From positions 25,345-89,344 of the IMG/VR virus record IMGVR_UViG_3300008107_000157: a stretch of DNA of 64,000 bases; one strand, written 5' to 3'. A program made the translations under genes and the position numbers. The first letter of the stretch is position 1. Each line of letters begins with the position of its first letter. The notes under the pieces are model-generated. The model was not told where the DNA came from, ran no database searches, and worked only from the letters and a program-made list of their open reading frames with translations. This document shows positions 23,809-62,474 of the stretch, piece after piece. This DNA is from a virus.

Positions 23809-23988
23809 ATGAAATATTCTATGTTGCAAATAAAAAAAGAAACCCACGAACTTCTCAAAAAATATTGCGAAGAACATGGGTTTAAGATGGGGAGTTTAGT
23901 TGAAAATTTAATTAAAAAACACGTCGGTGTTACTAAACCTCAAGCGAGTGTGTTAAGAGCTGATAAGGTTAAAAATCAATCTTACTAA
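23809..23988 (+). CDS. Small ribbon-helix-helix-like DNA-binding protein (59 aa, not in ORF track)
   Basis: MKYSMLQIKKETHELLKKYCEEHGFKMGSLVENLIKKHV...: beta strand then two helices, CopG/Arc-like pattern. Confidence 0.65.
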   Translation: MKYSMLQIKKETHELLKKYCEEHGFKMGSLVENLIKKHVGVTKPQASVLRADKVKNQSY

Positions 23989-26900: not shown

Positions 26901-27115
26901 TCCGTAAATAGCCAACTTATCTCTCTAACCAATTCAGGAGATAATTCCAATTTAGCATGCGCAATATCACCTGCTAAATAAATGAGTGAATTTTCCGTAC
27001 CTCTTTTACGGATTTCTTCAAACATCTTTTCAAACACTTGTCTATACTCTTTGTGTCTTTGTACGTTGCGAATGTGTACATCCGCAATATGATAGATTGT
27101 TTTTAATCTTTTCAT
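23969..27115 (-). CDS. Fused SbcD/Mre11 nuclease-SbcC/Rad50 ATPase (gp47-gp46-like)
   Basis: Metallophosphoesterase motifs ADVH, AGD, GNHD, FHG, GDIH; Walker A APNAAGKSS; coiled coil with CKFC zinc hook; CSGME signature; VIDEGFGTLD; ISH. Confidence 0.9.
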   Translation of the reverse strand: MKRLKTIYHIADVHIRNVQRHKEYRQVFEKMFEEIRKRGTENSLIYLAGDIAHAKLELSPELVREISWLFTECSKHCETILITGNHDCNMNNSDRLDVLTPIVDALNLPNFTYLRDTQVYSIGDVDFGVFSIFDDKANWPKANTLFGNKKIALFHGPVDNSQTDVGYVVSSRHFTTDMFDGYDLALLGDIHKRQTMISPSGCKVVYAGSLVQQNFGESLNGHGFLAWDMDSMKYEAIDIPNEYGYYTLDVDNGVVPIVMDMPKKPRLRVRLSNTDTADTKKVITEIKMRYGVEDFTIIRTDSFNKQKTGNRLSKLDFEDVTDINHQNTLIRDYVQRMMPFTTTTDLDGLEVINRDINSRITQEEVHRNIHWKPIKFTFSNMFSYGEKNKIDFQKIGGLMGLFAPNAAGKSSLFDAISFCLYDKSSRAFKAQNIMNNRKSDFECELHFQVNGMDFFIKRTARTINKGKNVKVDVQFWKEEGGVTTSLNGTERRDTNAVIEQYVGKYEDFVLTALSLQGNNSIFIDKSQSERKDLLAQFMGLNVFDKLYETATEDIKEVSVLIKNFKKTDFTTELAEKGLEKQTKKSELRGKEKELETKTNDVEDLSNRILGLTKELVPVDANLDLEKLEKKKNQIGFDILHVLSEEKSKNGKLDEYTKSITEISQSIEEHKIINGKPIEDAKKEWDEYKSEINETEHQIQLLEQSLESNREKLSHLEQHEYDPNCKFCMNNVFVKDALETKSKVEEQEDKLEELGNKHQSLIQQASYIADVEEQWDELVELKSKYQKAIVIKEKTIAELNGFETQKQLYDTQLEQVNTDIQKYHDNEDTIKRNKQIESVINGLNRTKGEIELEIKSINKDIAGLNGSISSLESFIEGIKSKMNEVKDLEEKNRLYTYYLDAVKRDGVPYELISKAMPVIENEINNILGQVVDFSIVMDIDGKNINAKIVYEDQEWPLEMCSGMEKFVSGLAIRVALINICNLPRPNFLVIDEGFGTLDANNLSSLFMMMQYLKTQFDFIWMISHLEQMRDIVDGLIEIKKIDGFSKIDF

Positions 27116-27120
27116 ATTTT

Positions 27121-27732
27121 TTATATTAAATTTTGTATATTTTTTTCTTTATAAAATTCTCTACCATTAAATGTAGTATATTTTAATTCATAATCACCAT
27201 ATTTAAAATAAGAATTTTTATATGGGAGAGATTCATATTCCGTTTCCGATAAGTTATATCTAATAGCATTAAATATGCCATCCACCATTGGTGTCTGAAA
27301 AAATGCAACTATTGTTCCTTTTTTACAATTAGGTTTTACATAATCTAAAAATTTAGGAATATTTGAATCCAAATGCGTATCGTGTAAAACTCCATCAAAT
27401 TTATCATTTAACGTTGGTAAAATATCAATCCAATCGCCTAAAAGTATTTTAGTATTTGGTTTATCTTTACACCATTCTAATGCGTTTTGATATATTTCGG
27501 GATGAACTTCTATAATTGTGTGCGATGTTACATTTGGGTTGGATTGTATTTCATCAGCTGATAAATGCATTCCAAATCCTATTTCTAAAATATCCCCACC
27601 ATTTTTAGTAACTATATTTGCTAGTTTTTGCATTAATGATAATTCACCTATATGCATAACTCTATCGCCATTTGTACAATCATCCATCATAATTTCATCT
27701 GATGATACAATTATTTTTTCTTTTCCATTCAT
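27121..27732 (-). CDS. SAM-dependent methyltransferase (guanidinoacetate/RMT2-like)
   Basis: ILEIGFGMHLSA, HTIIEVHPE, GDW, FDGVLHDT; ends ...IQNLI. Confidence 0.75.
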   Translation of the reverse strand: MNGKEKIIVSSDEIMMDDCTNGDRVMHIGELSLMQKLANIVTKNGGDILEIGFGMHLSADEIQSNPNVTSHTIIEVHPEIYQNALEWCKDKPNTKILLGDWIDILPTLNDKFDGVLHDTHLDSNIPKFLDYVKPNCKKGTIVAFFQTPMVDGIFNAIRYNLSETEYESLPYKNSYFKYGDYELKYTTFNGREFYKEKNIQNLI

Positions 27733-32402: not shown

Positions 32403-35400
32403 TTATTCCACTTCTAATATTGGTTCACTTGCATCTCTACCTGCTTTGTTTACTCTTAATGTGTTTGGATTTGTTAAGAATGTTTCAACAGGCGGTGTAC
32501 CATCTAATGTAGTTGCTGCAGTATTTTTTGAACCCTTATAGAATGAATTTTGTAATCCTCTTGTCAAATCCGTTGTGTTTCTATAATGTGTTGGCAAGTA
32601 TCCATTTAATGGAATTACTTTTACATTTGCATTTGATGATGTTAATGCGGATGAGCCAGAAAATGGTTGTATATTTAATTTTGTTTCAACATAAGTATCA
32701 GTTCCAACTTTATTATAAAGTCCACTAACACCCACACTTCCTGTTAAATATACATATTCTCTCGTTTTAGTTTCTTTTATTAATTGTACCCTAACTCTTT
32801 CCTTTTTAAGATTACCATCTTTATCATAGTAAGTTCTTATAGCAGAACCACTTTGTGCATAAATACCAAATCCTAATGTTTCATAATCATTTTGTCCAAC
32901 AACAACGTTGCCATTTATTAATTCAACTTCGGTTAATATGGTTGGTACATCAAATATAGAATCTATACTTGCCGTATATTGATATGAATTACCTTCTAAT
33001 AGTGAAAATTCTTTTGCATCTATTGTAGATGTATATTGATATGATTCTCCATTTAAAATTGCTGCTGATGCTGAATCCAAAGTTGCATCATATTGATTGT
33101 TTTCACCAACTAATGAATATTCACTTTCAGTATCTAAAACAACATCGTATTGTATGTGTTCCGCTGATAATAATTCATTTCCATATTTTATTACCGATTC
33201 ATAATCATTATGTTCACCAACTGGTTTTGAATGTTGGTGTTTGCTTCTTTCTAAAATGTGTGGTTCAATTAAAAGACCTGTACTAGCTTTAACTCTAGCC
33301 GGCAACATCTTCTTAATATCTTCAAACATAGATTTCTCATATAGTTTGATTAAGTTGATGTATGCGTAGATATCTCTACCATCAAATCTCTGGAAGTAAT
33401 AGTGTCTTAATTTATCTAAACTCTTATAAGTATCTTTATATCTATCAGATGGGTCACCGATATAGTTATCTAAGTTAATTCCACCAAACGATTTAGCAAT
33501 ATCAATATTCAACTCTTTTGTAGGAGAGAAGAATAAACCAATTCTGTTAGAATCAGTTGGAGATTGGTCAAATGCTTTTTTAGTAGAACGAGTCTTTGAT
33601 GATAAATCGGAAACTAATGTTTGCTCTTCAAATCTAACTTTGTTTGTAGAGTATCTTGTAGAACCCATATCAGGAACTTCTAACACAACACTTCTATCTA
33701 TTGCTTCAAAGTTAAAAGGATAAGAACCACTATTCGGAAAATTATGTGCACTTGCCGAATATGAAGCTGATGGGTTTAGTGAATATAATTCAGTCGCACT
33801 TCCACTTTCATAACTTACTCTATCGGCACTACCACTAAAATAAATATTTGTATCTACGTTTGGTATGGATTGATATTGAGATAAGTTCTTTGGATATTCA
33901 AAGTCTAAACGGAAATGTAAATCATCAGTTGAAGATGAGATATGGTTACCATTAATCATTTCGGGAAATGAAACGTGCTCATAGAATCTTTCTTTATCTA
34001 ATGGTGTAGACCATAATCTGAATTCATCAGCCGTTCCTACGAAATCATTACCAAATGTTATATTAGACCCATTATTCCAATTTGAATTTGTTCCTAAAAC
34101 ACTTATAGTGTTTGATTCTTCAAATATTGTTCTATCTTTATCAGCCTGTCTTACATTTAATTCAAAATTATGATAGCTTGAACTAATTTCTCTACTAACT
34201 TCTATACCAAAAAATCTACCATTAAATAATGGTAATAAAGATGATGATATAGCGTTTGAGCCAGAGTAATTAAATATAACTCTACCATAGTTTTGATTTG
34301 CAGAACCACTTATATGTACACCCCAACCACTACCCGATATAACATTATAGTTATCTGCTTCGGATGGTTTTACAAAAAACTCTATTGTATCAGGTTTTCT
34401 ATTTTCGTTTGTATCAAACCAATCTATTGATAGGTAAGAGCCACTAATCATTTTTAAACCATAAGTAAGATTATCAAATACTAATTTAGATTTTGTAACT
34501 TCACTAACTTCTGGTCCACCAAATTCTAAAATTGAAAGGTTTGATGATGGGATACCATAACAACTTAATAGTGCATAAATACCTCTACGAGTACCTTTAT
34601 GTTTTAAAAGATATGGTAAATTGTTTACAATTCTTCTCCAAACTTCGTATGTTCTTTGTTTAGCAGGATTTTCATTTTTAATATTACCATCTACATCTAT
34701 ACCAAATGTATATTCCCAAAGTTTAGAATCTGCTGCAAGATTTTTTGCATCCCAATTGAATGATTTAAGAATATCAAATAATAGTTTATCTGATATTCCA
34801 TCTTTTGCTTTGTATCCTAATCCTCTACTTTTTTCAATTGCTTTAGTATGGTAGTAGATGTTATCAAAGTGTTGACCAACCATTGTAAAGAATAAAATAA
34901 ATTGGTCATTGTTTTCATTATTTACAATGTATTCCGGTATGTTATTTAAAACGTAGTTTGGATTCTCAATATCAAAATCTTCTGCTAATTCTATAATATT
35001 ATCATACCAACCTGTATTAAAAATGTTTGTTATAATATGCGATGTGCTTGATATCCTATCACCATTATTATCATATGGCCATGTTATAGAGCTTCCCGTA
35101 TTATTTGTATATAATGAAGATGATGTATATAAAAACTTTTCAAAACCATCGAATCCAGCTATTAACGTATCTTTTTTAGATTGCTGTCTATTAACTTCTT
35201 GTATTGATGCAATAGAGCCGGTATATGAACCAGATGGTCCATTAGTATAGTTTGTAGAAGCTGATAGTATTAAATTATCGTAAGCTTCAATCAATTGAAC
35301 TTTATAAACAAAGTTATCTACTCTTTCTTTAGCAGAACTAAAATGTACAAAGTTACTCCATTCATAATTATCCGAACCACTTATATAATATTCTACATTT

Positions 35401-37748
35401 AATTCATCAGTATTTATTAATGATGATGTTAAGTATGTAGAAACTAATTGAGCTGATGTTGTTGAACCACTTAATATTAAATTATCCAAAGATTCGTATG
35501 CGGTAGATTGACCACTTACAAAATCAACATCAATATTGAAATTAGGTCCTTTTATTGGTGGACATTTAACTTCATCTTGCTCCGTAAGAATTACAGTTTC
35601 AATTAATGGATTTGACATTAATTTAGTAATCCACAAAGTAGAGTTTGCGGTTATATTTGGATTTAAAGGTGTGTATAATTTAAGAATTAAAGAATCAACT
35701 TTATTTGTTACCTTTATGTTTCCTATTTCATCCGTTTCTTTATCCGATAAAGTCCAATCATCATTTTCCCAAGACGAAATTAATATTTGCTCATCATTAC
35801 CAAAATTTGTTAAGTGAGATAAATATTTACTTTCTTTTTCAGGTTCAACTATACTTAATTTTTCTGCAAATGCATCAAATATAACAGTTGAAAATATATT
35901 CTCATCTAATTGAAATGCCGGCAATCCTAAAGTAGTTATTACTTCGTATTCATTACCAATAAGCTCTTCGGCGCCACCTCTATTAAATGGTTTAAATACC
36001 AAAGTTACATTATCACTACCTGCCCAATTTGTAAATCTTTCTCTTAAAGATTTTATGTTTATTAAAACTTCTCCGTTTGGATTTAAGTTTTTAAATAAAC
36101 CTATTCTACTTTTATCTTTTAATAATAAATCTACATCCACCGTTGTTGTTGAGAACGATGTGTATTCTATTTTATATTCAATGTTAAAATCTGAAAAAGA
36201 TGGTACATCTATATTTTGCGGAAAGTTTATTTCGGTAATAGATGGAAAATCATTTACAGCAGTAAAAGTAATTAAAGTAGTAGCAGAATCTCCTGTTCCG
36301 TATCTATTACTTTTAGCTAATAAAACTATTTTTTTAGTTCCATAAACTTCAGCAAAATCATTTTTAAATGATAAAGTTATATATTGATTAGATGGTGGTA
36401 TTGATATTACTTGAGAACTCCCATCGATATAAAGTAATACCTCATCTGCATTTATCGTTCTAAATGGAATTGAAATATTTTTATCATCATCCGATTCTTT
36501 TACCTGAACAGATATTTGTTTATATACATCATCAATTTCAACAGATGGTCTTTCTACTTCTATTTCTTTTTCGAATAGAGTTACGACAGATATGCCTGTT
36601 TTTAAAAGCTCACTAGATACACTAAACGCAGATGGTTGCTTATTCCATTTGTTATAATCGGGTTCGGTTGTAGCAAACAATCCATTTGGTGTGGCTGTTT
36701 GATATATGTTTGTTAAAAAATAATTAGATGGCAGATTGTTGTATCTTATTTTAAAATCTACTCTACCTCCATTTAATTCTTTTAAATCAATTTTCTGTAT
36801 ATCATTACCATCTGATAATGATATCGAACTTTGTTTTAATATATTTTCCTGTGCTGAAAATATTATATAATCCAATATTACATTATTTCCTAATTCGTTT
36901 TTTAAATTAGAAGAAAATACAATTTCATATTCCAGCTTATCAGCTACATTTGGGTCTCCACCTAATCCACCGCCAAATCCACCTCCAGTATCGCCGCTTA
37001 AACCACCACCGCTTTTAGTTTTTGCCTTAGTTGTAAAGTTTAATGTTATAGAACCAAAATCAGAATCTAAATTTTTAGTATTATCTAGTAAATAACTACC
37101 ATCCGGTTGTAATCTATATTCGTTTATTGTTAAAACTTCAGCATATTTGTAATCAATAGCTGTTGTTTTAGGGTTAAAATTATATCTTAATTTTGGGGTA
37201 TATCTAGTTAAAAAGTTATTTCTATCATCATTATAGTAATCATCATTAAATCCAAAAATACCCCTTCTGTTTGAATTAAATCCATATGAATTTCTTCCAA
37301 ATCTTATATATTCTGGGTTTAGATAATCTATATCCAAATCCAATGGTGTATTTATTTCTTTTGGTGGTTGATATTTTTTTGTAACGCTAACTTCATAGTA
37401 TTGTTCTGCGATACTACCATCTTTAACGATTTCATATTTTTTTGTGCCGGAAAATGTAGAAGCTGGAAAGAATCCTTTTCTAAAACTCTGACCAAATGAT
37501 AATGAAACTCCGTTTTCAAAAAATTCAACTACATCATCCCCAGCCGTTAATGATATTTTAATCATTTTACTGGTAGTAGTATCCACTATATCAATCGGAA
37601 CATATGTTGGGTTTGGTGGTACAGGTGGTACATATCCTCCTCCTCCGCCTCCTCCACCATTATCAATGAAAGCAGAGTATTGACCGTTACCATCATATGC
37701 GTTTAGGGTAGGTTCTCCTCCAAAAATATTTTCTAATGCTTTTACCAC
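32403..37748 (-). CDS. Large virion/baseplate protein with LamG-like domain
   Basis: 1781 aa; LPYLLKHKGTRRGI baseplate/tail-protein-I-like motif; LamG-like TIEFFVKP...FVGTADEFRLW. Confidence 0.65.
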   Translation of the reverse strand: MVKALENIFGGEPTLNAYDGNGQYSAFIDNGGGGGGGGYVPPVPPNPTYVPIDIVDTTTSKMIKISLTAGDDVVEFFENGVSLSFGQSFRKGFFPASTFSGTKKYEIVKDGSIAEQYYEVSVTKKYQPPKEINTPLDLDIDYLNPEYIRFGRNSYGFNSNRRGIFGFNDDYYNDDRNNFLTRYTPKLRYNFNPKTTAIDYKYAEVLTINEYRLQPDGSYLLDNTKNLDSDFGSITLNFTTKAKTKSGGGLSGDTGGGFGGGLGGDPNVADKLEYEIVFSSNLKNELGNNVILDYIIFSAQENILKQSSISLSDGNDIQKIDLKELNGGRVDFKIRYNNLPSNYFLTNIYQTATPNGLFATTEPDYNKWNKQPSAFSVSSELLKTGISVVTLFEKEIEVERPSVEIDDVYKQISVQVKESDDDKNISIPFRTINADEVLLYIDGSSQVISIPPSNQYITLSFKNDFAEVYGTKKIVLLAKSNRYGTGDSATTLITFTAVNDFPSITEINFPQNIDVPSFSDFNIEYKIEYTSFSTTTVDVDLLLKDKSRIGLFKNLNPNGEVLINIKSLRERFTNWAGSDNVTLVFKPFNRGGAEELIGNEYEVITTLGLPAFQLDENIFSTVIFDAFAEKLSIVEPEKESKYLSHLTNFGNDEQILISSWENDDWTLSDKETDEIGNIKVTNKVDSLILKLYTPLNPNITANSTLWITKLMSNPLIETVILTEQDEVKCPPIKGPNFNIDVDFVSGQSTAYESLDNLILSGSTTSAQLVSTYLTSSLINTDELNVEYYISGSDNYEWSNFVHFSSAKERVDNFVYKVQLIEAYDNLILSASTNYTNGPSGSYTGSIASIQEVNRQQSKKDTLIAGFDGFEKFLYTSSSLYTNNTGSSITWPYDNNGDRISSTSHIITNIFNTGWYDNIIELAEDFDIENPNYVLNNIPEYIVNNENNDQFILFFTMVGQHFDNIYYHTKAIEKSRGLGYKAKDGISDKLLFDILKSFNWDAKNLAADSKLWEYTFGIDVDGNIKNENPAKQRTYEVWRRIVNNLPYLLKHKGTRRGIYALLSCYGIPSSNLSILEFGGPEVSEVTKSKLVFDNLTYGLKMISGSYLSIDWFDTNENRKPDTIEFFVKPSEADNYNVISGSGWGVHISGSANQNYGRVIFNYSGSNAISSSLLPLFNGRFFGIEVSREISSSYHNFELNVRQADKDRTIFEESNTISVLGTNSNWNNGSNITFGNDFVGTADEFRLWSTPLDKERFYEHVSFPEMINGNHISSSTDDLHFRLDFEYPKNLSQYQSIPNVDTNIYFSGSADRVSYESGSATELYSLNPSASYSASAHNFPNSGSYPFNFEAIDRSVVLEVPDMGSTRYSTNKVRFEEQTLVSDLSSKTRSTKKAFDQSPTDSNRIGLFFSPTKELNIDIAKSFGGINLDNYIGDPSDRYKDTYKSLDKLRHYYFQRFDGRDIYAYINLIKLYEKSMFEDIKKMLPARVKASTGLLIEPHILERSKHQHSKPVGEHNDYESVIKYGNELLSAEHIQYDVVLDTESEYSLVGENNQYDATLDSASAAILNGESYQYTSTIDAKEFSLLEGNSYQYTASIDSIFDVPTILTEVELINGNVVVGQNDYETLGFGIYAQSGSAIRTYYDKDGNLKKERVRVQLIKETKTREYVYLTGSVGVSGLYNKVGTDTYVETKLNIQPFSGSSALTSSNANVKVIPLNGYLPTHYRNTTDLTRGLQNSFYKGSKNTAATTLDGTPPVETFLTNPNTLRVNKAGRDASEPILEVE

Positions 37749-54043: not shown

Positions 54044-54556
54044 TTAAATTAAAGTAAACTTTGATTGTTTTTTTGAAAACCAAACAATTAAAACATCTCT
54101 AAATCCCTTAGTTACTTTATCAACAGAATGCCAATCTTCACCGCCGTTAAAACAAATGTAATCACCTTTCTTATTCAATTCTACTTTTTTATCATTTACA
54201 TACATATCGCCACCATCAAAATCATCTGATAAAATTAAACTAATTGTTTTATGTGTAGTAAACCTATCTTTGTGCCTTTTTGCATAACCACCAACGCCAT
54301 AAATCAATCGGTGCATCATATATAAGTTTTCGTATGTTTCATTGAATTTATTGCATACGAATTTATTTAAAGATTCATTTTTTAAAGATAAAACAAAACT
54401 TTTTTCAGTATAAAATACCCCACCATTATCTCCTGCTATTGTAAGATATAATCCAGGATGAGCTAATTTTGTATATTTTAAATCATCACCCTCTAATACA
54501 TCGGTTTTATCTACTTCCGATTTCAAAAAATAAAATTCATCTTTGTCTAAATTCAT
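54044..54556 (-). CDS. 2OG-Fe(II) oxygenase (prolyl-hydroxylase-like)
   Basis: HKD...LSDDFDGGD...WHSV...GFRDVL; ends FTLI. Confidence 0.8.
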   Translation of the reverse strand: MNLDKDEFYFLKSEVDKTDVLEGDDLKYTKLAHPGLYLTIAGDNGGVFYTEKSFVLSLKNESLNKFVCNKFNETYENLYMMHRLIYGVGGYAKRHKDRFTTHKTISLILSDDFDGGDMYVNDKKVELNKKGDYICFNGGEDWHSVDKVTKGFRDVLIVWFSKKQSKFTLI

Positions 54557-54559
54557 ATT

Positions 54560-55624
54560 CTAAATTAAATATTTTTTTAAATCTATCAATTCATACATAT
54601 TGTGAAATACATATGGATTAGTTGCAACTTTTTTAAATTCTTTTACGAATAACGAATGCTCCGGATGATTACTATCCCCAATATCAATTAATTTAAATTG
54701 AACATCGGAAAACGTACCCCAATTTGTAATTCTACCAAAAAACACTTTTGTTTTATTTTTGAATATGGAATACATTAAATTTAAAAATGTTTCCATTTCA
54801 TTGTAATTTGATTGTTGGACCACAAAAGAACACTTAATACTCTCCAATGATTTTATAGTTGAAATGAAATTTAAATTTGAAATTAAATTATCCCAATTAC
54901 CCCCTAACCTTGTTACATTTTCGTAAGTATATTGTGCACCGGCATCTATACTTATTTCACAACTATGAACATACTTATGTATATTTGGCATACTATCCCA
55001 CATTTCTTTATTCCACAAACTGGCATTTGTATGTAGGTGGATTGATTTTAAATTTGGATATTTTGATGCATCAAATTTTCTAAGATAGTTTCTATATGAA
55101 GCAGATGCAAATGGGTCTGCTGTGCCTGAACAATATATGGTTTCTATGGAATTGGAATAAGCTTCTTCTATTTCATCTATGGTTGCATTAATACTTTTAA
55201 TCTTACCACTATCCGCAACTATCATATCTATTCTACACGATGGGCATTTAAAATTACAAGTCCTATCAAACGACATTTGAATTATCTTAGGGCCAACATC
55301 TAATATTGTATTTTTAGTTTCATAACTTTTTTGCATAACTTCAGTCAAATTATTAATATGTTTTATAGGTCCTGAAGTGTTTGTTTTATATTTTATTAAT
55401 TTTGATAAAAATGGACATTTTACTTTATCACAATATTTGTACGAACCATCCATAACCGAATTTCGTATATCAATAGCTTCGGATGAGTTCCATAATTCTT
55501 TTAATGGAACATTGTTTGGTAGTTCTTTAGTAAGCCAACTAGAGCAACACATATGGTTTTGTTTTTCCATTATCTCCAATGCTTCAAATGGAACACTACA
55601 TATGTAACTTTTTAAATCTACCAT
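54560..55624 (-). CDS. Radical SAM protein with N-terminal SPASM/twitch-like region
   Basis: CNFKCPSC; N-terminal CSVPF...CCSSW...YCDKVKC; ends KYLI. Confidence 0.8.
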   Translation of the reverse strand: MVDLKSYICSVPFEALEIMEKQNHMCCSSWLTKELPNNVPLKELWNSSEAIDIRNSVMDGSYKYCDKVKCPFLSKLIKYKTNTSGPIKHINNLTEVMQKSYETKNTILDVGPKIIQMSFDRTCNFKCPSCRIDMIVADSGKIKSINATIDEIEEAYSNSIETIYCSGTADPFASASYRNYLRKFDASKYPNLKSIHLHTNASLWNKEMWDSMPNIHKYVHSCEISIDAGAQYTYENVTRLGGNWDNLISNLNFISTIKSLESIKCSFVVQQSNYNEMETFLNLMYSIFKNKTKVFFGRITNWGTFSDVQFKLIDIGDSNHPEHSLFVKEFKKVATNPYVFHNMYELIDLKKYLI

Positions 55625-56142
55625 TATATTAAACTTTGCGTATATTCATCACGATTTCCCTTTCTTAATCTATTCTCACTATTTAAATCATAGATATCTT
55701 CATAATATGTAATTGGTATATCTAATTTTGTAGATATCATTTTTAAAGTAGTATCCCACTTTATTATATCAGAATAACACTTATCAAAGTTTGGCGTTTC
55801 ATTCCAAATATATTGCATTTCGGATGTAAACCCCTTCTTTCTATTGAAAACTGCATATGCATGGCTTTCGGCGCACTCTATTAAATTCTTTCTAGATAAT
55901 AGGATTACCTCATCAAATTTTTTTGAAAACTCTAATATCCATTCATTATAATCCAATACATCGGATGGCTTCTGAAACAAAACAATAGTTTTTACTACAA
56001 CATTATCCATCGCATCATTATATGTATATCTATTAGTACCATCAAATGGTTCAAATACTTCTTTAAGTTTTTTTGATTTGGATATATTCTTTAGCAATGA
56101 AGTGGAGCCTGTTCTTGGTAATGAAATTATTAATATTCTCAT
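55624..56142 (-). CDS. Sulfotransferase-like protein
   Basis: 5'-PSB loop SLPRTGSTSL, FEPF, LSRKN, YYEDIY; ends QSLI. Confidence 0.65.
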   Translation of the reverse strand: MRILIISLPRTGSTSLLKNISKSKKLKEVFEPFDGTNRYTYNDAMDNVVVKTIVLFQKPSDVLDYNEWILEFSKKFDEVILLSRKNLIECAESHAYAVFNRKKGFTSEMQYIWNETPNFDKCYSDIIKWDTTLKMISTKLDIPITYYEDIYDLNSENRLRKGNRDEYTQSLI

Positions 56143-56660
56143 ATCAGTTTCTTTTGATTATCTAATTTATAGTAAACAAAATCGGTATCATTCATCCATA
56201 TATTTAATGCACATCGTAATCCGATTGTCACCGGCATAACTCCGTGATAAATACTATTACCTTCAAATGTAATACCCTCTCCTATATTTAAATTAATTTT
56301 TGTATCCGCATCATTTAGTTCACAAAACGTATTAGATAACACAAATCTACCATCATCATAATCATTTGTTAAAGATATAACTGTTGTATAGTTTGAAGTT
56401 TTATCCAAATGTAAATCTAACCGCCTACCATCATAGTATCTTGTCATACTCACATTTATGTTTCGTATGTTAAATGATTCAAATTTTTGTACTTTTAAAA
56501 TTCTATCCAATACATACTCCTTAAAATTTTCATCATACACACGCCTACAATCCCAAACTTCATTTGAATCGTAATTAAAAAATTCTCCATTAGTTGTACA
56601 AAAATCTATAATATGTTTGCACTCCTTTTCATCAAAGTAAAAGTTTTTATTGTACATCAT
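56139..56660 (-). CDS. 2OG-Fe(II) oxygenase
   Basis: HLD...LTNDYDDG...YHGV...GLRCAL; ends KKLI. Confidence 0.8.
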   Translation of the reverse strand: MMYNKNFYFDEKECKHIIDFCTTNGEFFNYDSNEVWDCRRVYDENFKEYVLDRILKVQKFESFNIRNINVSMTRYYDGRRLDLHLDKTSNYTTVISLTNDYDDGRFVLSNTFCELNDADTKINLNIGEGITFEGNSIYHGVMPVTIGLRCALNIWMNDTDFVYYKLDNQKKLI

Positions 56661-57496
56661 ATTAAAAAGGAATTATCTATTCGTATGGGGGTTAGTAGAT
56701 TATTTTTAACAATAAAATCATGCATTTCATCTGCTATTATCTTATATCCATTTTTACTAGGATGCTTTCCAATTGTAGTATCTGTCCATAACATATTATC
56801 CTCCCAAACATCACTTCTATTTAATGCTCCTAATACATCTTTTAAAGTCTTTTGACCTAATCCCCAGTATCTATTTTCATTTATAAGATTTACTTTGTTT
56901 ATTGAATCTCTAATATCACCCCGAATCATTGAATCAAAAGCATCGCAAAACATATATCGTATCCCTAATTCATTAAAAATATATTGTAGATATATAATAT
57001 AGTTTTGATTTACTATATCGTAGTAATCATCTGTAAATAAATTATCGTAGTAGTACTGCCTAAAGTTTTTTTCAGCCCTTGTAAAATGTATGTTTTCATT
57101 TTTTATAGGCAAACCATAGAAATTGGTTTCTTTTAGATATTCAAAAAGATGTTCTTTTTGTTTATGTCTTTTCCCCCAAAAAACAAATGAATTTATTTCT
57201 GGAAAGAATGGTACAGCATCTCTTAAAGATGATGACCACATTATAACTACAAAATCTTTATTAGTAATAAATCCATTTCGTAATTTAAAAGATATAGCAT
57301 TAAAAATAGCGTTATTAGATGAACCACCTGCTCCTAAATTTTCTACTTCTATATTAAGTAGTTTAGATAGTTGCGTAGGCCATGCGTACTTATGTCGTAT
57401 ATTTGTTCTTTCTATTGGAACATCTGTAGTATATTCCTCTTCTAAATCACCACCAACTCCTTCAGTCCAACTATCTCCAAATGTAAATAACTTCAT
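56657..57496 (-). CDS. SGNH/GDSL-like protein
   Basis: FTFGDSWTEG, NLGAGGSSN, MWSSSLR, KHPSKNGY; ends SFLI. Confidence 0.65.
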   Translation of the reverse strand: MKLFTFGDSWTEGVGGDLEEEYTTDVPIERTNIRHKYAWPTQLSKLLNIEVENLGAGGSSNNAIFNAISFKLRNGFITNKDFVVIMWSSSLRDAVPFFPEINSFVFWGKRHKQKEHLFEYLKETNFYGLPIKNENIHFTRAEKNFRQYYYDNLFTDDYYDIVNQNYIIYLQYIFNELGIRYMFCDAFDSMIRGDIRDSINKVNLINENRYWGLGQKTLKDVLGALNRSDVWEDNMLWTDTTIGKHPSKNGYKIIADEMHDFIVKNNLLTPIRIDNSFLI

Positions 57497-57511
57497 AAAG
57501 CATGATTAAAA

Positions 57512-57649
57512 TTAAAGGTGCTTTTCTTTAATTTTATTTACTACTTCTTGAAAAGCAGCTGCTACTTTAACTTTTACATCTGTTGAAATTGGAGTTACAT
57601 TTGCTTTTATAATTTGAGCAGGTCTTTCTACTCTTACACTTTCTGCCAT
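57512..57649 (-). CDS. 45-aa peptide immediately downstream of the ATP-grasp-Hint gene (not in ORF track)
   Basis: MAESVRVERPAQIIKANVTPISTDVKVKVAAAFQEVVNKIKEKHL; A-rich leader; fills the intergenic gap. Confidence 0.65.
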   Translation of the reverse strand: MAESVRVERPAQIIKANVTPISTDVKVKVAAAFQEVVNKIKEKHL

Positions 57650-57673
57650 ATTATTTTAGTTTTTTAATTGTTA

Positions 57674-59173
57674 TTAAATCTTTTGCAATCTACTACCACC
57701 ACCACCACCACATCCTGGACAATAATTACTATTACACCAGTGACCACAATAGTTCCAAGGACACCAACAACTGTTATGTTGTACACCAAAATCACCATCA
57801 CCAAAATCAACTAAGAAAAGGTCGGATGATTCAAAATCCAAACTATAAATAGTTTTATTAGCGTGTTCCATTTCCAATCCAGCGATAGCGATGGTTGTTA
57901 GTTCATTAGTAGTAGAATCCGTAATAACTAACTTATCACCCACATACATCTTATTAACATTTTCAAATCTAGTAGCTAAAGAACCAGATTGCTCTATATA
58001 ATATTTTGCAGAAGGAGCATCTGTCCAACTTCTACCATCTTCCAATGTTATACGAATGTATATTGTATCAACTGAAGCGGATATAATATGTTGTAGTACC
58101 GACCCGGTTTGTATTAATGTTGAATTATCTTGCGATATTGTACTATTCCATCCAAATGTTTCGATTTTATCCTGTTCAAATTTAGCAGCATGATTATCGT
58201 TGAAATCTACATAATCAATAGAACGAACATAATCGCCTAATTGAATAGTATCTATATCCATTAACGTTCCATCAAATTTCAAAATAACACTATCATCATC
58301 GGTATGGTAATCATTTTTTGCAAAGTTACCTAATTCTTTTGTAATGTATTTATATCTGCTTTTTTGATTTAGTTTATTTGTACCTGATACAAACTCATCA
58401 GGTGTAAATGTTAATGGAATTATGGTTGATTGTCTATATCCGCCTAAATTTATTACATCTAAATTTCCACCATAAATTATATCAATGCTTCTTATAATTG
58501 AATATCTACCATTTACAACATTATCTTCTGAAAAAATAAACTCCTGAACTAAATGATTTGTTTCTACACTATCTTTAATTGTGGATAATTCGGTAGTATC
58601 GGAAGCCCTATATAATGCAGGATAATCCATTATTTCATATTGTGGATATCTGGCTTTAACTATTACGTTTGGCGTTTCCGTTGTTTCATAATCAACATCA
58701 TTTAAGCTTTCTAAACTTAAACTATCCGATGTAAAAAATGTTTTTGGTATATAATTAGAACCACTCATTAATGAAAAGAACTCAAATTTATCGGCACAAT
58801 ACGTTTCATCTACTAAAGCAGTTGTATCAAATGATTGTCTTAAAATAAACTTATTAACTGCATCTTCTATATAAGGTACAGTTACAGAGTTATAAGGTAC
58901 TGCGTAATCTTGGAAAGTTATTCCATTTGCTAAACAATTTTCTTCTAATAATTTTTTAAATTTAAATTGTTCATTTAGTGGAGTATATGCCGATGTTTCT
59001 GTCCATATAAAATGGAATTCAGTTATTCCATTCTCATTTAAAACATTAAATAAAGCATCGTAATCTAAATAATCAGCACCTGTATTGTAAATTGTGGTAT
59101 TGGTATTTATTTCTAAAAACTTTACGGAATTACCATACTCCAATAAATCGCTACCAATTATAGTTCCTTTCAT
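57674..59173 (-). CDS. Circularly permuted ATP-grasp domain + Hint (intein-like) domain + C-terminal six-Cys peptide
   Basis: N-terminal GSDLL...FLEINTN, ADKF, IPKT, VIVKARYP, LVQEFI; Hint blocks DGTLMDIDTIQLGDYV, ITLEDG, MYVGDKL, IYSLDFESSDLFLV...QHN; then SCWCPWNYCGHWCNSNYCPGCGGGGGSRLQKI. Confidence 0.7.
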   Translation of the reverse strand: MKGTIIGSDLLEYGNSVKFLEINTNTTIYNTGADYLDYDALFNVLNENGITEFHFIWTETSAYTPLNEQFKFKKLLEENCLANGITFQDYAVPYNSVTVPYIEDAVNKFILRQSFDTTALVDETYCADKFEFFSLMSGSNYIPKTFFTSDSLSLESLNDVDYETTETPNVIVKARYPQYEIMDYPALYRASDTTELSTIKDSVETNHLVQEFIFSEDNVVNGRYSIIRSIDIIYGGNLDVINLGGYRQSTIIPLTFTPDEFVSGTNKLNQKSRYKYITKELGNFAKNDYHTDDDSVILKFDGTLMDIDTIQLGDYVRSIDYVDFNDNHAAKFEQDKIETFGWNSTISQDNSTLIQTGSVLQHIISASVDTIYIRITLEDGRSWTDAPSAKYYIEQSGSLATRFENVNKMYVGDKLVITDSTTNELTTIAIAGLEMEHANKTIYSLDFESSDLFLVDFGDGDFGVQHNSCWCPWNYCGHWCNSNYCPGCGGGGGSRLQKI

Positions 59174-59205
59174 AATTAATTTTTATTTTTTTAGTATTAT
59201 CACCT

Positions 59206-59213
59206 ATAAATAT
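59206..59213 (-). promoter_or_regulatory. Putative late promoter motif GATATTTAT upstream of the ATP-grasp-Hint gene
   Basis: Intergenic; same motif as before structural genes. Confidence 0.55.
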
Positions 59214-59222
59214 CGGTTTGAA

Positions 59223-59510
59223 TTAAATTAGTGAATTTTTCTTTTTTATATCCAATGACTTTATATATTGTGAATCTATATTTTCCCACTTTCCTATTGG
59301 ACATGGACTAAAATTTTGAGAAAATACTTTTTTATTTAAGGGGCATCCGCATTTTCCACAAACTGCACTCCACTCTACTCCTTTCAATACCTCTTTTCTA
59401 TGTTCGCATCCTAAACAAATAGATAATCTTTTTTTAGCTAATTCTTCTTGAATAGCAGTTGGATTAAATGATGCTTTCCAAGCTTTAAATATTTCTTTAT
59501 AATCAATCAT
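59223..59510 (-). CDS. Small Cys-rich metal-binding protein (DUF6171-like)
   Basis: RLSICLGC...CGKCGCPL...CPIGKW; ends NSLI. Confidence 0.65.
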   Translation of the reverse strand: MIDYKEIFKAWKASFNPTAIQEELAKKRLSICLGCEHRKEVLKGVEWSAVCGKCGCPLNKKVFSQNFSPCPIGKWENIDSQYIKSLDIKKKNSLI

Positions 59511-59511
59511 A

Positions 59512-60240
59512 CTATATTAAACTTTTTTCTTTTTTTGGTAAATCGTAATAATCATAGATATTATTATATCGTTTTATAAACGTATCATTCAATATTAAAT
59601 TTGTTTTAAAATGATTACTACTATTTGATTTTTCCAATTTAAACTCTCTACCTAACTTTTCAGAAACCCAATTTTCTAACTCATATAATTTATCAAATTC
59701 AAACCATATAATATTTGGGTCATGGTTGTGGTATTCTGATATTGGTGTGAACAATATATAAAGCATTTTTCTAACTGTATCATTCATATAAGGCCTTATT
59801 CCATTTCTATTTACAAACTCCTTAATAACATCTACTCTCGTTTGCTCACTTATTAAATCATCTTTAGTATAAAATAAAATATCATCTAATTTTAGATTCT
59901 CTAATCTAAGATTTAATAATGGGGAGTTTGCGGAATTAGATAAGTCAACCACATGCTTCCATAATGATATAAACCTATCGTGTCTATTTCTTCTTACACC
60001 AATTATATCATATTCATAACCAAATTTTTTATACAAATCTGTAATTTTTTCATGCCCATGCACAATCGTATCAGCCAATTCCTCATTGGACATATTCATA
60101 TCAATAATACTACTCCACTTTTTATAAAACATTTCATCATAATGTTCGATATTTATATTGTTTCGTAAACATGTTATATAAAATGATGTAGATGCGCATC
60201 TTGGCAAACTTAAAGATATAAATTTATTATCAACTAACAT
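59512..60240 (-). CDS. Sulfotransferase-family protein
   Basis: FISLPRCASTS, HGHE, RRNRHDRFISLW, KSNSS; ends KKEKSLI. Confidence 0.7.
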   Translation of the reverse strand: MLVDNKFISLSLPRCASTSFYITCLRNNINIEHYDEMFYKKWSSIIDMNMSNEELADTIVHGHEKITDLYKKFGYEYDIIGVRRNRHDRFISLWKHVVDLSNSANSPLLNLRLENLKLDDILFYTKDDLISEQTRVDVIKEFVNRNGIRPYMNDTVRKMLYILFTPISEYHNHDPNIIWFEFDKLYELENWVSEKLGREFKLEKSNSSNHFKTNLILNDTFIKRYNNIYDYYDLPKKEKSLI

Positions 60241-60896
60241 TATATTAAACTTTTTTCTTTTTTAATAAACGTAAATCCTACATTACCCGCCATAACAATT
60301 CTATCTATTGTAGATTTGGGAGCATTTTGAGGTGAGTGTGGCATATCGGCTTCCATTATTATCAAATCATCTTCTTCCGGCCTTATCCAATATTCTTTAT
60401 CATTTTTGCCTTTAAAATATAACACACCATCTTCCCCATTCATCACATCTGGCATTTGAATATAGTAAACATATGTATAATGTGGTACAAACAATTTCAT
60501 ATCCTTATTTATATCAGTATGAATATGATACTTATCAATACCTTTTAAATCTTTGTGTTTAAATTGTATTTGTACCGGGTTTTGTGAACGAACTACATTA
60601 ACCCACGCATCTGTATTTATTTTATTGTATGTTATATTTTTTTCATTGTATAGTTTTTTACATTCATTAACACCGATTTGAACTATTTCATCTAATTTTG
60701 TTTCTACAATAAAATCACCAGTAAAATCTAAATTACCATTCCATTCGCTTTTATAAGCAAAGCCATCTGTTTTTACATCCGGCATCGAATCTATAATACT
60801 ATATGCTTCTTTTAAAAAGAATTGTTTATCTTCTAATCGATTTAATTTTGTTTTCCAAATGTAAGTCGAATCATCGTAGTATAGTTTTTCAATCAT
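60240..60896 (-). CDS. Putative 2OG-Fe(II) oxygenase/cupin-fold protein
   Basis: AWVN, YHIH, YVYYIQMP, GVLYF, PHSP, RIVMAGN; ends KKEKSLI. Confidence 0.7.
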   Translation of the reverse strand: MIEKLYYDDSTYIWKTKLNRLEDKQFFLKEAYSIIDSMPDVKTDGFAYKSEWNGNLDFTGDFIVETKLDEIVQIGVNECKKLYNEKNITYNKINTDAWVNVVRSQNPVQIQFKHKDLKGIDKYHIHTDINKDMKLFVPHYTYVYYIQMPDVMNGEDGVLYFKGKNDKEYWIRPEEDDLIIMEADMPHSPQNAPKSTIDRIVMAGNVGFTFIKKEKSLI

Positions 60897-60914
60897 AATA
60901 TGGTTTTTTCTTTT

Positions 60915-61484
60915 TCATATTAAACTCTTTTGCTTTATACAACTTGGCCAAACATTTAATGAATATCGTATGCCGGCAGTAACGTTATCTACAGAATGAA
61001 CTATATTAGAATCGAATATGAAAACACTGCCCTGCTTTTTTTGAATAGTATATTCTTCATCATTTATTATATACTTAACATATCCATCATCATACTCATC
61101 GTTTAATTGGATTATATATGTAATAGTAGCCCCATACATTATCTCATGCGAATCAGAATGCCAATCTAAGAAATCACCCGCCGAATATCGATTGAATGAA
61201 TATTTTGGAATAGAGTTATACTTTATTCCGTTGTATGGATTTAATTCATTTGATATATTGATTATTTTGTTAGATACCGATTTTAATAAATCACAATTTA
61301 AGGTATCATCTACAAAATAACATCCCATACGTTTATTACCAGCGTAATCTACGTTTGAATCAACAACTTTACCATTAACAATACGTGATGATTTCATTGC
61401 TTCCAATCCTATCGAATTACCCAATTCTATAATCGATTCACATTCATAGTTTGTTAGAAAATCATCTATATAAGTTGTAAACAT
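60915..61484 (-). CDS. 2OG-Fe(II) oxygenase (prolyl-hydroxylase-like)
   Basis: DDFLTNYEC, WHSD, LNDEYDDG, VHSV, GIRYSL; ends QKSLI. Confidence 0.82.
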   Translation of the reverse strand: MFTTYIDDFLTNYECESIIELGNSIGLEAMKSSRIVNGKVVDSNVDYAGNKRMGCYFVDDTLNCDLLKSVSNKIINISNELNPYNGIKYNSIPKYSFNRYSAGDFLDWHSDSHEIMYGATITYIIQLNDEYDDGYVKYIINDEEYTIQKKQGSVFIFDSNIVHSVDNVTAGIRYSLNVWPSCIKQKSLI

Positions 61485-61490
61485 ATTAAA

Positions 61491-61793
61491 TTATAATTTA
61501 TTTGAAATCGAATGTAGCTTAGCACATTCTTCATACATTTCTAATGCGGTTAATCTACCCATCAACCACTTACCCATAGATTTAAAATCCTCTCTTTTAA
61601 GAGTTATATATGCGGGCATAGATTTGTATTTGACCAGTATTATCTCCTTACACTTCCTATTAGACTTCCAATTATCTAACTTATCAACCAATTCCGAAAG
61701 ATTTTGATTAGACAGATTAGTTTTTGGAAGATACGTTTTCCATTCTAAAGATATCCAACCTTTTTCTAACTTATCTAAGACAGTAATATTCAT
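61491..61793 (-). CDS. Hypothetical protein
   Basis: 100-aa ORF with its own promoter; C-terminal EMYEECAKL is UVR-like. Confidence 0.55.
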   Translation of the reverse strand: MNITVLDKLEKGWISLEWKTYLPKTNLSNQNLSELVDKLDNWKSNRKCKEIILVKYKSMPAYITLKREDFKSMGKWLMGRLTALEMYEECAKLHSISNKL

Positions 61794-61798
61794 AACCT

Positions 61799-61830
61799 AC
61801 AATATACGATAATAATTTTAAATTTCCAAA
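61799..61830 (-). promoter_or_regulatory. Bacteroidota-type sigma70 promoter (variant -7 box)
   Basis: TTTG-N20-TATATTGT. Confidence 0.6.
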
Positions 61831-61832
61831 TA

Positions 61833-62474
61833 TTATATGAGCTTTATATTCGTATTTGATTTAATCATTCTGATAAACTCATTTGCTAATTGTATATGCC
61901 CTACTTCACCATAGTGACCATTAACTATTTCTTCATTTGTTTCTTTGGTTATATTTGTTACATTCCCTATGTAGTTTTTACTTACGATTCTATCCAACGG
62001 CGACCAATGTATTATGAGATTATTAGGAAATGCAATATTCAATAACTTTATCCAACTATGAACCTCACTAGCATATTTTGTTTTTGTTCTATTAATTAAT
62101 ACCTCTTCCAAAGTAGTATTCGATACATCTTCTAAATTCCTTATGTTTCCATCGAACATTGGTATTATTGGTTTCCAATTATCCCATTTATCAACCAAAC
62201 GGAATCGAGTACAAGATGACCATCCTATTATAATAACATCATTTGAATTAATAAGATTGGCTGAATCACATACGGATTGGAATATACTATAATTATCAGA
62301 ACCGCCTCTACCTAAATTAACTAATTCCATTCCCATCTCATCTGAAATTATTTCACCATATACTCTGGGTATGTAACCTTTCCAAGCAACATACTTATCA
62401 ACCCACAATGCTCCGTTTGTAGTGTTAAGTGATTCAGTAAAACTATCTCCATATGTCCAAAGTGTTTTTTTCAT
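61833..62474 (-). CDS. SGNH/GDSL-like protein
   Basis: TYGDSFTE, NLGRGGSDN, IGWSSCTR, NGHYGEVGH; ends IKLI. Confidence 0.65.
   Translation of the reverse strand: MKKTLWTYGDSFTESLNTTNGALWVDKYVAWKGYIPRVYGEIISDEMGMELVNLGRGGSDNYSIFQSVCDSANLINSNDVIIIGWSSCTRFRLVDKWDNWKPIIPMFDGNIRNLEDVSNTTLEEVLINRTKTKYASEVHSWIKLLNIAFPNNLIIHWSPLDRIVSKNYIGNVTNITKETNEEIVNGHYGEVGHIQLANEFIRMIKSNTNIKLI

Follow-up and report, generated by a model that had tools for sequence, protein, structure and literature searches.

We analysed a 64,000-nucleotide stretch (the window, positions 25,345 to 89,344) of the 89-kilobase (kb) IMG/VR virus record IMGVR_UViG_3300008107_000157, which has a G+C content of about 30%. All long open reading frames (ORFs) of the window are on the minus strand. 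One of them encodes a protein of 499 amino acids followed by a stop codon, in which an ATP-grasp ligase domain, a Hint (hedgehog/intein) domain and a Cys-rich tail are arranged in this order (Table 1). A sequence-only reading had described this ORF as a ligase that may release its own six-cysteine peptide, and the reading frame, its length and the domain borders were all as it had given them. Since the PHROGs matches in the window include a baseplate wedge, a tail fibre, an SbcCD-like nuclease and a carbamoyltransferase, the record appears to be a T4-like myovirus, uncultured and from freshwater. The segment 57400-59600 was found nearly whole in 20 public runs from 11 studies, and the labels of these runs were almost all freshwater or lake metagenome; six of the runs may be the source sample. 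In hidden Markov model searches, the 89-kb record contained no second copy of the ligase or of the Hint domain.

Table 1. Features of the ligase-Hint locus. Positions are those of the window.
Feature	Positions	Strand	Basis
Whole ORF, 499 amino acids: ligase, Hint, Cys tail	57674..59173	-	translation and relatives
Predicted circularly permuted ATP-grasp amide-ligase domain (GspS / YgiC / glutathione-synthetase type), residues 1-285	58319..59173	-	model fold
Predicted Hint fold lacking both the N-terminal nucleophile and the block B His, residues 289-467	57773..58309	-	model and profile
His466-Asn467, predicted scissile junction (Asn467/Ser468)	57773..57778	-	conservation in relatives
Tail of 32 amino acids, residues 468-499: six Cys, three Trp, a run of five Gly, one Lys	57677..57772	-	translation and relatives
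ORF of 45 amino acids, 24 nucleotides downstream	57512..57649	-	79/80 close loci, 0/80 distant loci
Six-Cys small protein of 95 amino acids directly upstream, Leu-Ile end, CxxC...CxxCGC...C pattern	59223..59510	-	tblastn
Enzyme island: four 2-oxoglutarate (2OG)-Fe(II) oxygenase-like proteins, a radical S-adenosylmethionine (SAM) protein, a GDSL-like protein and others	54044..62474	-	Pfam

As a single query, the 499-residue protein had no match in Pfam (no family at E<=10), in PHROGs or among PDB sequences. A protein search found 564 relatives at E<=1e-3 (90% clustering). Among clusters at 50% identity (1.84 billion searched) we obtained 264 representatives, of which 190 passed E<=1e-10, most of these being full length, and the full-length relatives reach down to about 21% identity. 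Scans of IMG/VR confirmed 337 and 110 stretches that encode the protein, and the nearest clusters in the ESM Atlas were 96-100% viral. A tblastn search of 50,697 deposited phage genomes gave no match, though this set may omit records close to the window. Scans of viral contigs with the single proteins P0180, P0227 and P0143 yielded no relative. We also searched 185,579 species genomes with two peptide patterns taken from the close subfamily, which gave 24 stretches, none with a relative; this was a narrow test which does not prove that the family is absent from cells.

For residue counts we used 229 of 271 proteins, after dropping 42 fragments that lacked the column of D9 or of H466; this sample is dominated by one subfamily. 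The ratio of nonsynonymous to synonymous substitution rates (dN/dS) was calculated over 108 pairs with 0.05<dS<1.0 among 57 distinct sequences. The ligase part gave 0.19, the Hint part 0.17 and the tail 0.22, and the non-Cys positions of the tail taken separately gave 0.33. Since the values in each part lie between 0.17 and 0.33, all three parts are, by this measure, coding and constrained.

The Hint region contains the motifs that the sequence-only reading had listed: Y289-H-T-D-D-D-S-V, W383-T-D-A-P-S-A-K and the end of the domain, I442-Y-S-L-D-F-E-S-S-D-L-F-L-V...Q-H466-N467, followed by S468. We modelled the full protein with AlphaFold2 from an alignment of 58 rows (mean predicted local distance difference test (pLDDT) score 84.7, predicted template modelling score 0.79). 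When the Hint region was compared with the PDB by Foldseek, it matched inteins, hedgehog and bacterial intein-like (BIL) domains with E values of 9e-8 to 1e-4. In VIA-align it was closest to the Ssp DnaB mini-intein (6frg; Z 15.6, root-mean-square deviation (rmsd) 2.2 Å, 140 residues aligned), followed by the Tetrahymena BIL2 (6y75, Z 15.5), the C. thermocellum BIL (2lwy, Z 15.2) and hedgehog (1at0, Z 14.4). The top matches had an rmsd of about 2 Å over 135-145 residues and 108 chains scored Z>=8. Model residues 290..467 superposed on an intein from its residue 1 to its last (e.g. 2in0, Z 15.0, rmsd 2.1 Å, 135 aligned), and the family profile also matched the KlbA intein by sequence (E 1.7e-5). 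The model thus supports a Hint fold for residues 290-467, with the beta-fold of the Hint superfamily, as the sequence-only reading had expected.

The residues needed for splicing are missing from this fold. Intein position 1 is His290 in our protein, and in the 229 relatives it is H in 150, K in 17, G in 15, S in seven, T in five and C in none. In the profile alignment to KlbA, the block B motif TLTHDHP lies over WTDAPS, so that the block B His position is taken by Ala386, and the position of the block F His (F:13) is taken by Asp451. The earlier statements that block A has no nucleophile, that block B has no His and that the domain cannot splice therefore hold. The residue after Asn467 (+1, n=225) is S in 78, A in 40, T in 20, P in 16, G in 15 and another residue in 56, so that Ser, Thr or Cys stands there in only 103. 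The position-1 Cys/Ser and the block B Thr-x-x-His of class 1 splicing inteins are thus not found, and their +1 Cys/Ser/Thr is not a constant feature of the family, while the C-terminal His-Asn of block G, shared by class 1 inteins and asparagine peptide lyases, is present. With no Cys ever at position 1, no block B His and a changing +1 residue, splicing is excluded. The varying +1 residue also speaks against one detail of the sequence-only reading, which had given a role to the new N-terminal Ser; such a role is unlikely.

The roles of the intein steps are described by Mills, Johnson and Perler 2014 (PMC4031507, from the available part of the text). Judged by its residues, the Hint domain should be incapable of steps 1, 2 and 4, and only step 3, the cyclisation of Asn, can remain. 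The same part of that paper treats it as established that inteins can cleave off-pathway at the C-terminus, with Asn cyclising although the earlier steps have not taken place, and states that the F:13 His is not always required. Asn467 is kept in 229 of 229 relatives and His-Asn in 225 of the 229, which agrees with the expectation that His-Asn would be kept while the tail varies. Among 110 representatives, only His466 (96%) and Asn467 (100%) reached a conservation of at least 85% within the Hint region. That selection keeps exactly these two residues is our main reason to infer that the Asn467/Ser468 bond is cut, and we regard C-terminal cleavage by Asn cyclisation as the best reading of the domain.

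The Hint fold and the terminal His-Asn could also be taken as signs of a true (mini-)intein or of a mobile intein-like insertion. We give this idea hardly any credence: none of the 229 relatives has a Cys at position 1, Ser, Thr or Cys follows the His-Asn in fewer than half of them, there is neither a folded C-extein nor a homing endonuclease, and the domain is constant in every member of the family. As a candidate, the splicing intein was rejected by the residue counts at position 1 and +1.

A more serious alternative is that no cleavage takes place, and that the Hint domain is a degenerate scaffold from which the Cys tail is never detached, serving as a metal-binding or disulfide module. The loss of the block A nucleophile, the block B His and the block F His would fit such a scaffold, as would the CxC and CxxC spacings that occur in the tail, and the processing is itself deduced. 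However, a scaffold would not be expected to keep exactly His-Asn, with the Asn invariant, while every other Hint position falls below 85%. The region after His-Asn, moreover, spans anything from five residues to two extra Hint domains, unlike a fixed module. We therefore consider the scaffold unlikely, though it is to be taken seriously.

The tail begins with Ser468 and has 32 residues with six Cys, as the sequence-only reading had it. The Cys are at positions 469, 471, 476, 480, 485 and 488, the sole Lys (K498) is the second-to-last residue, and there is no Asp or Glu. The claim that the tail is variable held between subfamilies, where tails differ strongly and cannot be aligned across the family; it failed within close relatives, which keep the Cys framework. 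Over the 229 relatives, the segment after His-Asn is 0-242 residues long before any added module. Its Cys count is even in 223 of them: six in 151, eight in 32, ten in ten, 12-16 in eight, four in two and none in 20. Leaving out the 22 relatives with fewer than four Cys, there are 207 Cys-rich tails, of which 167 have exactly one Lys (49 of 88 among representatives) and 89 have no Asp or Glu at all. In 155 of 201 tails, no more than one residue follows the last Lys. A Lys lies within the last two residues in 60 of the 110 family representatives, whereas control ORFs of these same loci have one there in 112 of 1230 cases. Graspetides link Asp/Glu side chains to Ser/Thr/Lys, and since our tail has no Asp or Glu, side-chain chemistry of this type is impossible in it. 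The label of ribosomally synthesised and post-translationally modified peptide (RiPP) is for this system an analogy and not a membership, and the oxygenase, radical SAM and GDSL-like genes nearby are no more than context for it.

These tail properties also bring to mind polymorphic effectors. The freed Cys peptide would then be a diffusible toxin, an antimicrobial or a signal at lysis, and the ligase would have an unrelated job, e.g. the modification of a host molecule. The order of conserved body, HINT and variable C-terminal cargo is that of polymorphic toxins (PMC3482391, available part), extracellular disulfide peptides typically have an even number of Cys, and the tails do differ strongly between subfamilies. 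Yet the non-Cys tail positions had a dN/dS of only 0.33 and our coarse test on 108 pairs saw no positive, diversifying selection on the tail. There is no evident immunity gene, and the ligase-Hint junction is kept family-wide, which argues for a functional link of the two domains. We find a polymorphic effector improbable.

The N-terminal domain has the motifs D9...E21-I-N23-T-N25, A127-D-K-F, I142-P-K-T, V170-I-V-K173 and V209-Q-E-F-I213, all noted by the sequence-only reading, which had likened it to circularly permuted ATP-grasps of the glutathionylspermidine synthetase (GspS) type. The fold agrees with this. Residues 1-288 modelled alone reached a pLDDT of 92.3. When the model was aligned with 48,161 representative chains, the best 11 matches were all ATP-grasps of the glutathione-synthetase/GspS type, with Z values from 9.9 to 6.8. 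YgiC (7uka) gave Z 9.9 and an rmsd of 4.3 Å over 203 aligned residues, with model residues 1..280 on chain residues 94..378. GspS (2io7) gave Z 9.2, and the next matches were a putative GspS, eukaryotic (homo)glutathione synthetases, the fungal ligase Cp1B and trypanothione synthetase. Below these, at a Z of about 6, came classical ATP-grasps (TTLL, ArgX/LysX, RimK), whose alignment started only at about residue 50; a permuted metal-binding element made up of the first strands would give this result. With Z values that are only moderate and an rmsd of 4-5 Å, the weight lies in the uniform top list together with a Foldseek match to YjfC (7uk6, E 6e-6). We conclude from the model that residues 1-285 are most probably a permuted ATP-grasp of the GspS/YgiC type in which the metal-binding strand comes first.

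The residues D9, E21, N23, R112 and D122 are kept in all 229 relatives, R228 in 228 and K173 in 225. Such conservation is what a working enzyme would show, and we predict that the ligase is active. The E. coli enzymes YgiC, YjfC and Gss all share D102, K112, E115 and N117 (YgiC numbering). In a weak hhalign alignment (E 0.013) D9, K18, E21 and N23 fall on these four residues, and the structural superposition has the same register. The Asp, Glu and Asn of GspS bind Mg, a role for which our literature search gave no usable confirmation. A co-fold of the ligase domain with the tail, ATP and Mg scored 0.01 against a mark of 0.32, which speaks neither for nor against binding. YgiC and YjfC are cited, and likewise annotated, as peptide-spermidine ligases, and ligases of this type join the C-terminal carboxylate of a peptide to a primary amine (PMC12568646 and PMC11762307, available parts).

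Longer relatives carry further modules behind the tail. In 22 of the 229 relatives, the Cys segment is followed or replaced by one or two Hint domains of the canonical kind (Cys1, TxxH, HNF..., HN), and 11 end in an S74-like module with the motif SD..YKENI...GVIAQEL. Both are motif counts made with short regular expressions, with at least one miscall (the tail of P0232 was cut too short). In Pfam, Peptidase_S74 was matched by all four long forms, at E values of 0.007-0.08, below the 22-bit cut-off. The module is thus seen in longer relatives only and is absent from the 499-residue protein. PT-HINT, Intein_splicing and Hint were matched in eight of 68 scanned relatives, where the best E value for PF07591 (PT-HINT) was 2.6e-21, and these matches fell in the added domains only. 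Since both kinds of added module remove themselves, the Cys segment of the extended forms is bracketed by two cutting sites, which fits a segment meant for excision with a free C-terminus.

A separate layout is seen in P0124, P0126, P0129, P0131, P0132 and P0134, in which a Cys-rich segment lies between a nucleophile-less Hint domain and a canonical Cys1 Hint domain. From its position, this segment could leave with a C-terminal thioester, and the layout resembles intein-based peptide cyclisation or ligation. The distant relatives at loci L083-L162 have one or two canonical Hint domains and some apparently three (about 910 residues); most of them end in ...VHNK, the last His-Asn being followed by a single Lys and the stop codon.

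S74 modules are typical of phage fibres and spikes. The 11 relatives that end in such a module, together with the tail-fibre and baseplate genes of the window, could therefore point to a fibre or spike component of the virion, whose Cys region would form a trimeric tip, with the S74 chaperone folding it where the long forms provide one. Against this, the N-terminal two thirds of the protein are an enzyme fold with invariant catalytic-type residues, the gene has enzyme genes as neighbours while the baseplate gene is 14 kb away, and the S74 matches are too weak for Pfam. A role in the virion is very improbable.

The gene is part of an island of enzymes, some of which, the radical SAM protein included, were recognised by Pfam matches below the curated cut-off. 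Arrays of dioxygenases are known from cyanophages (PMC2938197, available part). The small protein directly upstream had no Pfam match; tblastn places it next to the ligase gene at 73 of the 80 close loci and at 13 of 80 distant loci, distant loci being those whose ligase is about 26% identical, and its homologues have 76-78 residues. The 45-residue ORF downstream may be lineage-specific, since it was present in nearly all close loci and in none of the distant ones. Around the distant ligase genes there was a radical SAM gene in 44 and a 2OG oxygenase gene in 49 of the 80 loci.

We also surveyed the loci from the side of the radical SAM gene (54560-55624; loci L165-L241), of which at least 567 stretches were confirmed in IMG/VR. 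Of 77 new loci, 76 were scored and 36 had 8 kb on both sides. A ligase-Hint gene lay within 10 kb in 35 of these 36, and the sole exception, L238, is cut at the edge of the ligase gene and is on the same contig as L105. This linkage was seen in related phages and may reflect shared descent. The invariant Cys of the radical SAM protein are the N-terminal C9, C26, C65 and C70 and those of its CxxxCxxC motif, and it has no C-terminal Cys cluster. Two hydrophobic residues end 34 of its 37 distinct homologues.

A similar end is common in the whole island. Of the 83 minus-strand ORFs of at least 80 residues in the record, 12 end in Leu-Ile, and ten of these are in the island, where they make up ten of 13 ORFs. 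This bears out a separate remark of the sequence-only reading on a Leu-Ile end. The window has further Leu-Ile ends at 11297-12724 and 27121-27732. In the first kb upstream of the ligase gene, 104 of 107 ORFs of close loci end in two residues that are each Leu or Ile ([LI][LI]), and for distant loci the figure is 61 of 107 in the first kb on the downstream side. Such ends are most frequent at the ligase gene; their share declines within about 5 kb and is about 0.1 at 6-7 kb.

The Leu/Ile ends and the terminal Lys could be joined in a protein-tag conjugation. The ligase would couple the C-terminus of a tagged enzyme or of the tail to the sole Lys after His-Asn, and Asn cyclisation, in a Hint domain that fires once, would release the conjugate; this would be a counterpart, driven by ATP, of the splicing to a Lys isopeptide by Tetrahymena BIL2. 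GspS/YgiC-type ligases do join a C-terminal carboxylate to a primary amine; the enrichment of terminal Lys over control ORFs, the single Lys of most Cys-rich tails and the peak of [LI][LI] ends at the ligase gene all point the same way. The BIL2 domain, with a fold so close to ours, forms an isopeptide between a Lys epsilon-NH2 and a C-terminus without ATP (PMC8616854, available part). However, each step is surmised from these patterns, and the co-location may mean shared ancestry of related phages. The Leu/Ile tag could also serve docking, degradation or translational coupling, and among the loci surveyed we found no phage with tagged enzymes and no ligase, or the reverse. We regard conjugation as doubtful at best. 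Should it occur, it would be an undescribed phage tagging machine, ATP-driven and intein-derived, in which acyl-phosphate chemistry replaces the intein thioester, and we would not expect this to be the case.

Elsewhere in the window, the 1048-residue ORF at 23969-27115 (minus strand) matches an SbcD-like family with residues 6-336 and an SbcC-like family with residues 296-1047 (PHROGs), and is an apparent fusion of two nuclease subunits. Two ORFs of the structural region, 32403-37748 (1781 residues) and 20929-23712 (927 residues), both on the minus strand, had no PHROGs match at E<=1e-3.

We return to the self-processing fusion, in which cyclisation of Asn467 frees the 32-residue peptide. We lean towards this reading, with the substrate of the ligase left open, at slightly better than even. 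Without a Cys/Ser at position 1 and without the block B His, the Hint domain would neither splice nor cut at its N-terminus. Asn467 would form a succinimide and break the Asn467/Ser468 bond, giving a ligase-Hint protein of about 50 kDa and the free peptide. The six Cys of the peptide would form three disulfides or bind metal, and its sole Lys, beside the free C-terminal carboxylate, would be a functional handle. Going by its fold, the ligase would phosphorylate the C-terminal carboxylate of a peptide and join it to a primary amine. Its substrates would most likely lie within the system, being the C-terminus or the Lys of the tail, or the C-terminal ends of the Leu/Ile-tagged enzymes nearby. 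In the relatives with a canonical Hint or Peptidase_S74-like module behind the tail, this module would trim the other end, which suggests that the tail is meant to be excised.

Several points weigh against this reading. The cut at Asn467/Ser468 is deduced from conserved residues. Asp451 replaces the block F His and is itself kept in only 63% of representatives, so that catalysis of the cyclisation is not assured. Residues 469-499 had a pLDDT below 50, so the tail is unmodelled. The 499-residue protein has no obvious export signal, though no dedicated test was made, and disulfides, with which the even Cys counts agree, would need an oxidising place. On the ligase side, Pfam gave no match for our protein, GSP_synth (PF03738) was matched in two of the 68 relatives (best E 0.011), as was RimK, and the hhalign comparison with the alignment of E. 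coli YgiC, YjfC and Gss had a probability of 3.3%. Finally, 22 of the 229 relatives have fewer than four Cys between His-Asn and any added module, 20 of them none. The Cys-less relatives have tails of five to seven residues or Hint domains only, and many end in ...VHNK. The release of a Cys peptide is thus not a universal function of the family. Since all 22 keep the ligase residues D9, E21, N23, R112 and D122, their ligase must have another or an additional substrate. This weakens the idea that the fused ligase acts on its own tail, which by these residues need not be the substrate. We looked for small Cys-rich ORFs beside the tail-less relatives and found them in 14 of the 80 distant loci, but no variable peptides were among them; the 14 ORFs were either the conserved Zn-ribbon-like neighbour or a dCMP-deaminase-like ORF.

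The closest parallel to the predicted release is PT-HINT. In polymorphic toxins, a HINT domain just before the variable C-terminal module is the predicted releasing peptidase, which would act by autoproteolysis (Zhang et al. 2012, PMC3482391, available part). Our Hint domain has the same place before a variable module, but it lacks the N-terminal Cys and itself matches no Pfam model, PF07591 included, at E<=10. The N-terminal part of the phage protein is an enzyme and not a secretion or stalk module, its cargo is a 32-residue Cys peptide instead of a toxin domain, and it is encoded by a phage while the toxins are bacterial. The BIL domains (C. thermocellum 2lwy; Tetrahymena BUBL BIL2, 6y75/6tmm) share the fold (Z 15.2-15.5, rmsd 1.9-2.5 Å) and are likewise Hint domains that act outside classical inteins without a +1 nucleophile. 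They use a Cys1 thioester, whereas position 1 of our protein is a His and is never Cys in 229 relatives, so that only the Asn step can remain. YgiC/YjfC and GspS (7uka, 7uk6, 2io7) are the best folds for the N-terminal domain and share its permuted order with the D...K..E.N motif first. The phage domain is about 95 residues shorter at its N-terminus than YgiC (model residue 1 on YgiC 94), has no significant sequence similarity to these enzymes and is fused to a Hint domain.

Borosin-type RiPPs have an enzyme fused to its own core peptide and need a separate protease. Our protein is similar in that a modifying enzyme and a short C-terminal peptide are in one polypeptide, but it has a built-in Hint domain predicted to do the cutting, and the enzyme class differs. 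In the literature searched we found no paper on a ligase-Hint-Cys-tail layout, though additional files of PMC3482391 and PMC2938197 could list it. The available part of PMC7824862, on jumbo phages, mentions only other ATP-grasps, and PMC11118758 has nothing on Hint. The protein is covered by no library family.

If the cut occurs, the protein would hold a natural example of a Hint domain that has specialised solely in cutting at its C-terminus, and such a self-cleaving, nucleophile-free domain could serve as a tool for tag removal. It would also mean that a large group of uncultured aquatic phages makes small Cys-rich peptides without a separate protease. The fusion to a ligase and the block of tagged enzymes point to a peptide- or protein-modifying pathway in abundant freshwater viruses.

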